A DNA stretch of 64,000 nucleotides from Roseibacillus sp. (lineage in GTDB: Bacteria; Verrucomicrobiota; Verrucomicrobiia; Verrucomicrobiales; Akkermansiaceae): positions 672,001 through 736,000 of the forward strand of contig JBPOGI010000002.1 of NCBI GenBank assembly GCA_051251855.1, read 5' to 3'. The position numbers and the translations under genes are program-made. The notes under the pieces were generated by a model. That model made no database searches and was not told where the DNA came from. It was given only the letters and a program-made list of their open reading frames with translations. Of this stretch, positions 38,471 to 40,400 are shown one piece after another. How positions within the stretch are numbered: the stretch's first letter is position 1; every line of letters starts with the position of its first letter.

Positions 38471-39475
38471 TTATTGGCCCATGGCGGCGGTCCAGCCAAC
38501 GGCGGTGAGTCCGACGAAGACGAAGAGTCCAATCGCTAACCAGGCGATGAACTTGGGTTTCATGATGGTGGAGTAGAGAAAGAGGAGCTTGACGTCCATC
38601 ATGGGGCCAAAGACGAGGAAGGCGAGGCGGGCTGCGGTGCGCGCGGCGGCGGGTGGGGCTAAAGTCGCAGCGATGAAGGCATCAGAAGTGCTGCAGAGGC
38701 TGAGCAAGAAGGCGAGCGCCATGAAGGCGGCGGTTTGCCCGAGGGCGGAGCCTTCCATGGATTCGAGCCATTCGGCTCCGGGGGCGATGCCGACGTTGAA
38801 GAGGGCGGTGATGATGACGCCAATGGTGAAGTATACACCTACGTCGGTGAAATCCTTGAGGGCCGCGCGCATGGAGAGGACGACACGGTTCTGTCCCTCG
38901 CTGCCGTGGTGATGATCGTCGTGCTCGTGATGATGGTCATGGTCGCAGTCTTTGTGGTCGCAGTCGTGGTGAGGGTGTTCTTTCTCCTTCTTGGTGTCCG
39001 CGGGCAGTACTTTAGGCTTGAGGATTTTGTCCATGGGAATGCGGAGGACAATGAGACCGACAAGGATGGCGGCGAGGTAGCCGAGGAGGACGCGGGAGAA
39101 GGTGAAGAACTCGGCACGCTCGGACCAGGTCTCGAAGTCGGGGAAGGCATTCCAGGTCGAGAAGATGGTGATGGGGTTCACGATGGGCGCGGCCAGCATA
39201 TAGGCGAAGGCGCAGCTCACAGGGAGGCCTTTGGCGACGAGACGACGAATGACGGGGACGACGGCGCACTCGCAAACGGGGAGAATTAAGCCGAGGAGGC
39301 CGGAGACAAGAACGGCGGCTGTCTTGTTCTTAGGGAGCATCTTTTCCATCGCTCCGGCGGGGAGGTAGACCCCGAGAAAGCCCGAGAGAAGGGTCCCAAG
39401 CAGGATAAAGGGTGCTCCTTCAAAAAGGATGGATTTGAAGGCGATGGCGAAGTTGGCGAAGTCGTCAGGGGACAC
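38471..39475 (-). CDS. DUF318/ArsP-family permease with a His/Asp/Cys-rich loop
   Basis: EGAPFILLG, PVCECAVVP, MLAAPIVNP, LSLCSTSDAF, FLVFGPMMDVK; loop HPHHDCDHKDCDHDHHHEHDDHHH. Confidence 0.88.
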   Translation of the reverse strand: MSPDDFANFAIAFKSILFEGAPFILLGTLLSGFLGVYLPAGAMEKMLPKNKTAAVLVSGLLGLILPVCECAVVPVIRRLVAKGLPVSCAFAYMLAAPIVNPITIFSTWNAFPDFETWSERAEFFTFSRVLLGYLAAILVGLIVLRIPMDKILKPKVLPADTKKEKEHPHHDCDHKDCDHDHHHEHDDHHHGSEGQNRVVLSMRAALKDFTDVGVYFTIGVIITALFNVGIAPGAEWLESMEGSALGQTAAFMALAFLLSLCSTSDAFIAATLAPPAAARTAARLAFLVFGPMMDVKLLFLYSTIMKPKFIAWLAIGLFVFVGLTAVGWTAAMGQ

Positions 39476-39763
39476 GCTGAGGAGGAAACCAGAAATGAGA
39501 GTAGAAATGCGAGCAATAACGAGTGTGAGTCTTATTGGCGCGGGGTTTTAGCCATCAGGGAGAGTAGAAAGTTTCCCAGTAAATCCTCAGGAGTTGTTTT
39601 TCATGTAATTATTTTGTTTTAAGTTGGTTGCGTTCTTTTTGTTGCCTTGTTTGGGCTTTTGGGAAAGCCCTTTCGGTGACCGATCTGTGTTCAATTCTCT
39701 GGAATAGTTGCGGCAACTGACTGATGTGGTAGGTTTTGACTGTTCTTAGATGAACAAACTACA

Positions 39764-40339
39764 ATGAAACTAAAATTCGTATTTACGATGATGGCTGCTA
39801 GCGGTCTCTTCGTTGCGCCTGTTTTTGCTGACCATCATGGTGAGAAAAAGGCTGCAACAGAGGCATCAGCAGAAGGTTCAGTAGCGGCCTACGTGGTCGC
39901 TGCTTCTGGCGGCGGGTGAGGCGCTGCAGGAAAGGTCAGTTCGGCCTTGAAAAGTCAGGAAGGTGTCAAAACCGTCATTCTCTCCGGTCTCCGTGCCACA
40001 GTCATCATGGATGACGGCGCAGCTCTAGATGAAGCGAAGGTGAAAGCCGCCATCAAAGGAAAGAAGATGGAGTTCGTTTCCATGGAGAAGACCCAGATTA
40101 CTCGCCCTGTAGCGGCCTATGAGCTCGTGGTGAGCGGCGCTACATGAGCAATCAAAAATGAAAAGGCCCGTGTGGCCTTGGAAAAATTGGACGGAGTTTC
40201 CGGTGCGTTTGTGAATAACAACATCGCGCTCCACTTCTCAGAGGAAACCGAACTTGATGAGAAGCTTGTTGCTTCTGCTATCAAGGAGTTTGGAATGAAG
40301 GTGAAGAGCACCAAGAAGCTCGAAGCATTGCCATTCTAG
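39764..40339 (+). CDS. Candidate double-selenocysteine secreted protein with tandem HMA/MerP-like domains (191 aa; in-frame UGA at codons 52 and 128)
   Basis: One frame from ATG 39764 to TAG 40337-40339 with TGA at 39917-39919 (SGGG-U) and 40145-40147 (SGAT-U); signal peptide; SECIS-like hairpin after each UGA; terminator after the TAG. Confidence 0.82.
39932..39948 (+). promoter_or_regulatory. SECIS-like hairpin 1
   Basis: AAGGTC-AGTTC-GGCCTT, 12 nt after the first UGA. Confidence 0.7.
40163..40179 (+). promoter_or_regulatory. SECIS-like hairpin 2
   Basis: AAGGCC-CGTGT-GGCCTT, 15 nt after the second UGA. Confidence 0.72.
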
Positions 40340-40360: not shown

Positions 40361-40400
40361 TGAGAGGCCTGTCGCATCGTGCGGCAGGCCTTTCTTTTTT
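40361..40400 (+). terminator. Intrinsic terminator
   Basis: GAGAGGCCTGTCGCA-TCG-TGCGGCAGGCCTTTC followed by a T-run. Confidence 0.85.

Follow-up and report, generated by a model that had tools for sequence, protein, structure and literature searches.

The two hairpins that follow a pair of in-frame UGA codons in a short reading frame of Roseibacillus sp. are very probably canonical bacterial SECIS elements, one per UGA, in a candidate double selenoprotein that is exported and built of two HMA domains in tandem. This assignment is supported by conservation of the hairpins in UGA-containing homologs, covariation, the presence of Sec machinery in the genome, and loss of the hairpins in one Cys homolog. 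A further proposal from an earlier, sequence-only reading, that the consensus of the two hairpins (AAGGYC-NGTNN-GGCCTT) represents the SECIS of the lineage and could serve as a probe for hidden selenoproteins, has to be given up. Unprefixed positions refer to the window, i.e., the whole 64,000-nt stretch of DNA that was analysed.

Results

A hidden reading frame with two in-frame UGA codons

The hidden ORF (39764–40339, + strand) runs from an ATG at 39764 to a TAG at 40337–40339 and encodes a candidate double selenoprotein of 191 aa with U52 and U128 if both in-frame TGAs are read; translation table 11 lists just a 66-aa fragment here. UGA1 (39917–39919, +; candidate Sec52) occupies the place of the first Cys in the HMA CxxC loop and is replaced by Cys in homolog P0021. 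When the protein is aligned to CopA and MerP, UGA2 (40145–40147, +; candidate Sec128) falls on the first Cys of their GMTCxxC motif; it is replaced by Cys in P0017 and P0021. The N-terminus resembles a Sec-pathway signal peptide (39764–39829, +; a basic N-end, a hydrophobic core and a V-F-A site, judged by eye), and homologs have similar N-ends. It is followed by two HMA-like domains at 39881–40099 (+; loop GGGU) and 40112–40318 (+; loop GATU), both of which lack the second Cys of the loop, as do 18/18 aligned members of the family.

The two halves of the protein are paralogous domains (hhalign 98.6%, E 1e-15), and an AF2 model (pLDDT 93) predicts a ferredoxin-like beta-alpha-beta-beta-alpha-beta fold for both. 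The best fold match is the N-terminal domain of ZntA (Z 9.7, rmsd 2.0 over 70 residues). The packing of the two domains has no match among solved structures, which match single domains one at a time (Foldseek TM about 0.36). In B. subtilis CopA, a family profile matches the tandem domains (E 1.4e-9), and it also matches MerP (E 0.0014). In profile searches, the protein passed no Pfam or NCBIfam cut-off, its score against PF00403 being 17.2 bits vs a gathering cut-off of 24.8. The protein appears to represent an unlisted family of exported tandem-HMA-fold selenoproteins.

Just 3´ of the true TAG, an intrinsic-terminator-like hairpin with 15 pairs and a T run (40362–40400, +; a consensus match) would be compatible with a one-gene transcript that covers both UGAs. 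A search for sigma-70-like matches gave one, at 39736–39765, which runs into the start codon; with 0.5 expected, this is the chance level. Four RNA runs contain sequence from relatives over parts of the gene and are uninformative on level, strand and read-through. Upstream, at 38471–39475 (−), the window encodes a divergent ArsP_1/SO_0444-like permease with a His/Asp/Cys-rich loop. This permease adjoins only 4/32 loci (flanks of about 1.4 kb, some incomplete) and was therefore rejected as a defining neighbour of the gene.

A hairpin behind each UGA

The sequence-only reading placed a hairpin with a 6-bp stem and a 5-nt loop 12 nt after UGA1 and 15 nt after UGA2, and position and folding confirm both. 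SECIS 1 (AAGGTC-AGTTC-GGCCTT, 39932–39948, +) has the loop AGUUC at 39938–39942, 18 nt after UGA1, and SECIS 2 (AAGGCC-CGTGT-GGCCTT, 40163–40179, +) has the loop CGUGU at 40169–40173, 21 nt after UGA2. Folded alone, each adopts the expected stem and loop, at −5.6 kcal/mol for site 1 and −7.6 kcal/mol for site 2, with z-scores of −3.85 and −2.69, respectively (1/200 shuffles as good). The whole 44–61 nt behind the UGAs fold no better than shuffles (z 0.67, −0.34, −0.92, −0.45). The outcome of the bSECIS energy criterion (MFE <= −7.5 kcal/mol; excerpts of PMC13188914) depends on the segment folded, the UGA-proximal 44–59 nt giving −8.6 to −13.4 and −9.3 kcal/mol, values no better than those of shuffles. 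Neither hairpin was matched in a search of Rfam at E <= 5, which gave only two chance matches in other parts of the 1-kb region.

Within the 64-kb window, AAGGYC-NGTNN-GGCCTT is matched twice at <=1 mismatch vs 0.05 expected, and 0/100 shuffles gave two matches; as these two sites themselves supplied the motif, the test is post hoc. The two hairpins are alike because the HMA domains are internal duplicates and because both stems encode a K-[V/A]..A-L helix. The description of the encoded peptides as different is accordingly correct for the loop residues (SS vs RV) and overstated for the remainder, since both stems encode K-[V/A] and A-L in paralogous domains.

Orthologs and database versions of the gene

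The gene was found in 18/61 related genomes, each copy with two TGAs. All 18 carriers have selA, and 0/31 selA-negative genomes have the gene with this query, the genomes being kin and not independent. A sample of the order gave 28 full-length two-TGA loci among 401 genomes together with 6 weak single-domain matches, two of which were inspected and are ordinary CxxC HMA proteins without a hairpin. In a phylum-wide sample the gene was present in 1/301 genomes, the source genome alone. The ortholog set consists of 32 distinct Verrucomicrobiales loci, and hence 64 hairpin sites, from genomes that are related and not independent; 14 of the loci were found only after the structure had been fixed.

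Among named homologs, those nearest (62–81% identity) come from Roseibacillus and a Verrucomicrobiota MAG. Database versions are either full-length with W at both sites, presumably from translation of TGA under code 4, or fragments of 46–80 aa that end on the residue before U128. Cys is present in two protein entries, at both sites in P0021 and at site 2 in P0017. The P0021 gene is divergent to a gene for a ZigA-like COG0523 zinc metallochaperone GTPase (L099:1089–2351, −; NF038288 598 bits vs a cut-off of 600). Two more distant exported HMA repeats, P0025 and P0125, have W where the first Cys is expected. P0025 comprises three domains, each with GMTW (Pfam HMA E 1.6e-34), and both are probably further mis-translated Sec-HMA families outside Verrucomicrobiales.

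The exact motif is confined to this gene

If AAGGYC-NGTNN-GGCCTT were a lineage-specific SECIS sequence read by the SelB of this lineage, it should recur at other Sec sites. The near-identity of two copies in one gene speaks for such a role, as does a Redoxin site at C10:234380, the one other site that lies within 3 mismatches of the motif. The remaining evidence makes it very unlikely. The exact motif has only 2 matches in the 4.96-Mb genome, both in this gene, and used as a probe for hidden selenoproteins it returns just these known sites. It is found at 0/13 other family-supported Sec sites, which deviate by 3–7 mismatches, and at 15/32 (site 1) and 11/32 (site 2) orthologous sites, or 26/64 in all. 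In the 22 genomes with a UGA-containing SelD, the SelD hairpin has a different stem at about 32 nt from the UGA. The looser genome scan suggested by the sequence-only reading (spacer 10–18, 6-bp stem, loop NGTNN) gave 449–450 matches among about 175,600 TGAs; it recovered 3/13 supported Sec sites and is therefore neither sensitive nor specific on its own.

The 13 sites used here were assembled from 178 candidates, defined as TGAs with coding-like flanks and selected with no hairpin filter. Of these, 21 were fetched, picked by eye with the hairpins on display. The test set consists of the 12 that have a Pfam or NCBIfam domain spanning the TGA, to which SelD was added. Six without a family spanning the codon were set apart as "extra", and three (a PPIase end at C7:510439, C1:25501, and an SMC end at C6:450783) were dropped because no domain extends across the TGA.

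A generic rule (stem >=5 bp and a 4–5 nt loop N-G-[U/G], 16–37 nt from the UGA) matches 12/13 of these Sec sites vs 6.6% of 175,622 TGAs and 19/364 TGAs that end long ORFs. The figure of 12/13 is optimistic because the test sites were chosen by eye and the loop rule was widened to 4–5 nt afterwards. Combined with the coding filter, the rule selects 22/178 candidates, made up of 11 family-supported sites, the 2 sites described here, 4 further candidates and 5 unsupported ones (17 plausible). As far as these scans can tell, the exact hairpin sequence is specific to this gene and not lineage-wide; what the candidate selenoprotein genes of this genome share is the generic published bSECIS, in which a stem of any sequence carries a small loop whose second position is G and whose third is U or G.

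The hairpins are conserved as RNA

Both UGAs are kept in 32/32 loci, and the spacing between hairpin and UGA is fixed, with the loop at 18 or 21 nt. The hairpin is retained throughout the UGA homologs. All 64 loops conform to N-G-[U/G], starting with AGT (15), CGT (43), CGG (3) or GGT (3), and thus three amino acids (Ser, Arg, Gly) share this pattern; in the genome at large, Arg is encoded by CGT in 18% of cases and Ser by AGT in 13%. Stems reach 4 bp or more at 63/64 sites and 5 bp or more at 57/64, compared with 7 and 3 of 4613 other in-frame offsets. The weakest stems are one of only 3 bp and six of 4 bp, and the inner four pairs fail in 1/256 cells. Among the first 18 loci, 91% (site 1) and 97% (site 2) of stem cells pair, and slid controls reach at most 64%.

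The check for covariation was carried out on the same 18 loci and gave 12 (site 1) and 14 (site 2) two-sided changes, numbers reached by 0/500 shuffles. Pair-count and pair-type measures at site 1 are not above shuffles (211 and 388 of 500). At least 3 changes of the closing pair at site 2, between the states C-G, U-A and G-C, fall on the protein tree, and one homolog (L038) has the site-1 loop at site 2. RNAalifold predicts the hairpin stem as the sole structure, and folding of the alignments reveals no conserved lower stem at either site. Folding of single sequences prefers other structures at several homologous sites (e.g., L024, L027, L028 and L033 at site 1, and L030 at site 2).

Pairing of this kind could also arise as a by-product of the codons for the K-[V/A]-x-x-A-L helix, in which case the UGA would be recoded by another signal or not at all. 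This explanation draws on the observations that both stems encode nearly the same residues in duplicated domains and that overall folding z-scores are weak. We regard it as highly improbable, and marginally more so than a lineage-specific motif. The probability of a hairpin given the peptide is about 0.6–0.7% per site (median P 0.0058 at site 1 and 0.0072 at site 2, with the codon usage of this genome applied to all loci). Synonymous codon identity at the three hairpin-core codons of site 1 is 1.0, 1.0 and 0.92 and elsewhere 0.24–0.64; at site 2 the rise is less clear, with peaks at 0.81 and one outside codon that reaches 0.85. Pairing persists through changes of amino acids (the peptides RLRADL and KISSIL), and conversely, the Cys homolog P0021 (DNA L099), a single distant sequence, retains x-x-A-L and has the stem at 0/2 sites. 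Codon choice and the loop residue both indicate that the hairpins are under selection as RNA.

UGA is a stop codon and the genome encodes selenocysteine machinery

The genome encodes selA, selB and selD above TIGRFAM cut-offs, and selC (tRNA-Sec) above the Rfam cut-off. SelB has wing_2 and wing_3 domains, and selD itself contains one in-frame TGA. Reassignment of UGA to Trp, which would allow the gene to be read without any SECIS, has been reported for some Verrucomicrobiota (excerpt of PMC13462651) and would account for the W at both sites in database homologs. It is scarcely credible here. TGA ends 450/2090 long ORFs as a normal stop and RF2 is present, and general reading of UGA as Trp is therefore ruled out. 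In addition, tRNA-Sec is the only UCA-anticodon tRNA found in the genome, the UGA position aligns with Cys in HMA domains, P0017 and P0021, and the gene tracks selA. In a separate part of the genome (C10:114076–115599), 10 tRNA genes are found within 1.5 kb, an arrangement that also occurs in phages or integrated elements.

Action of the hairpins on the opposite strand (e.g., as an antisense intrinsic terminator), favoured by a terminator-like consensus score of hairpin 2 on the minus strand, or a split pseudogene in which the UGAs are true stops, is just as hard to credit, since stem cells with G-U outnumber those with A-C by 29 to 3 and so favour the sense (mRNA) strand, the UGA spacing is fixed in 32/32 loci, and homologs with as little as about 28% identity still have both UGAs and the reading frame past them.

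Discussion

Relationship to known SECIS elements and HMA proteins

Bacterial SECIS elements are characterized by a 3–9 nt apical loop, a 4–16 bp stem and a G as the first or second nucleotide of the loop, after which G or U is usual (excerpts of PMC13188914). The hairpins described here have loops of 5 nt, stems of 6 bp, G at position 2 and spacings of 18 and 21 nt, and each stands behind an in-frame UGA that takes the place of a conserved Cys, in a genome that uses Sec. The covariation seen among UGA homologs agrees with the same assignment, as does loss of the hairpins in a Cys homolog, L099 being the sole Cys control, and the hairpin of the genome's own fdhA has a like geometry (7-bp stem, 5-nt loop, 18 nt). 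There are also differences. The loop ends are unpaired, whereas most bSECIS have an N1..N2-paired loop sub-pattern (same excerpts of PMC13188914); the stem is gene-specific and without a conserved lower stem; and, in contrast to recoding of the E. coli fdhF type, one short ORF has two UGAs, separated by 228 nt, and a paralogous copy of the hairpin for each. By loop, stem and spacing, the hairpins are further members of the known bSECIS class.

The nearest relative among selenoprotein families is NF041115, the UxxU metal-binding (seleno)protein, which has in common an HMA-like loop with Sec at a Cys position and is the best NCBIfam match for 15/18 members, at 22.8–24 bits vs a cut-off of 95. 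NF045683, a MerT/CopZ fusion selenoprotein, is matched by 1/18 members only (E 0.0096). These two families have UxxU or C/SxxU in one domain, whereas the present protein joins a putative signal peptide to two domains, each of which carries a single Sec with neither a second Cys nor a second Sec. The predicted ferredoxin-like fold of both halves is that of PF00403 (HMA; MerP, CopZ and the N-terminal domains of CopA and ZntA), the CxxC of which is replaced here by U-x-x-(A/K/T), at a score below Pfam gathering. The gene is a candidate HMA-type selenoprotein variant with one Sec per domain, no partner Cys, a tandem arrangement and export. The family is absent from the 119-family selenoprotein table of a 2026 review (PMC13188914), and literature searches returned no paper on it; Haft and Tolstoy 2025 (mSystems) or the BSepDB table could mention it.

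A model for insertion of two selenocysteines

By analogy with established SelB/SECIS biology, the hairpins would bind SelB and direct Sec insertion at both UGAs. With UGA1 in the A site, SelB-GTP-Sec-tRNA(Sec) would bind the G-[U/G] loop 18 nt downstream through its C-terminal winged-helix region and out-compete RF2, yielding Sec52. After another 76 codons, the same process would take place with hairpin 2, the loop of which is at 21 nt, to yield Sec128, and translation would stop at TAG 40337, followed by export of the protein. The hairpin pair would descend from internal duplication of the HMA domain, and its stems must then also encode the helix K/R-[V/A]-x-x-A-L, with a loop residue that is always Ser, Arg or Gly as a consequence of the N-G-[U/G] codon.

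MerP is an exported protein (its NCBIfam name includes "periplasmic"), and MerP and CopZ bind metal through thiolates. One possibility, to which we give an even chance, is that each HMA loop similarly presents a lone selenolate as a ligand for a soft metal (Hg, Cu or similar) outside the cytoplasmic membrane. The gene context that touches on such a role is thin, and consists of the ArsP-type permease in 4/32 loci and the ZigA-like zinc chaperone beside the Cys homolog. A redox role of the protein is the main alternative, less favoured than metal binding and, in our view, rather unlikely.

A more far-reaching picture may be drawn tentatively, with the balance somewhat against it in its entirety. 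The gene would define an undescribed Verrucomicrobiales family of exported double selenoproteins in which CxxC has been traded for a lone Sec per HMA domain, so that coordination could be monodentate, or Se-metal-Se across the two domains (or the pair could act as a diselenide switch), in a manner unseen in MerP and CopZ. The SECIS loop would fix the amino acid (Ser, Arg, Gly) at one helix position, and the host lineage would be a group whose wealth of selenoproteins has been overlooked, this one genome having at least 15 supported UGA-Sec sites.

The RNA signal is a textbook bacterial SECIS and therefore changes no rule. Its significance is that the hairpins are strong evidence for a selenoprotein gene that gene callers destroy. 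A 576-nt gene with a pair of paralogous SECIS elements at 18 and 21 nt, for which 64 natural variants are at hand, also makes a compact test bed for SelB recognition (loop vs stem, spacing) and for double Sec insertion in one short bacterial ORF. For annotation of the lineage, the generic hairpin rule combined with a coding filter is a usable tool, which the exact motif is not.

Other candidate selenocysteine sites in the genome

The 13 further in-frame TGA sites that are spanned by known domains suggest a large selenoproteome. They are found at C11:42440+, C1:1584111+, C8:303832+, C6:461829+, C9:312528+, C6:486626−, C1:1812084+, C11:99365+, C10:234380−, C9:35000−, C11:191993−, C1:1403243+ and C7:93151+, and comprise two Trx-like proteins, Prx, MsrA, ArsC, DUF3179, VPGU-Trx, two redoxins, Rdx, MiaB, FdhA and SelD.

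Four additional sites have no family match. Two of these, C1:1073661− (L103) and C8:392860− (L113), combine coding-like flanks with a generic SECIS hairpin and no Pfam or NCBIfam family, and are candidates for unlisted selenoproteins; the contexts are a Gly/Gln-rich linker (GPG-U-QG) in one and, in the other, a protein that looks secreted (GET-U-NN) and may be laid out like a thioredoxin. The remaining two, C7:209947− (L102) and C11:155881− (L114), would encode proteins with UxxC in one case and GGG-U-GGG in the other. Both hairpins contain a G-U loop and fail the 5-bp rule through one internal mismatch or a 4-bp stem, and the loop of L102 is identical to that of SECIS 1.
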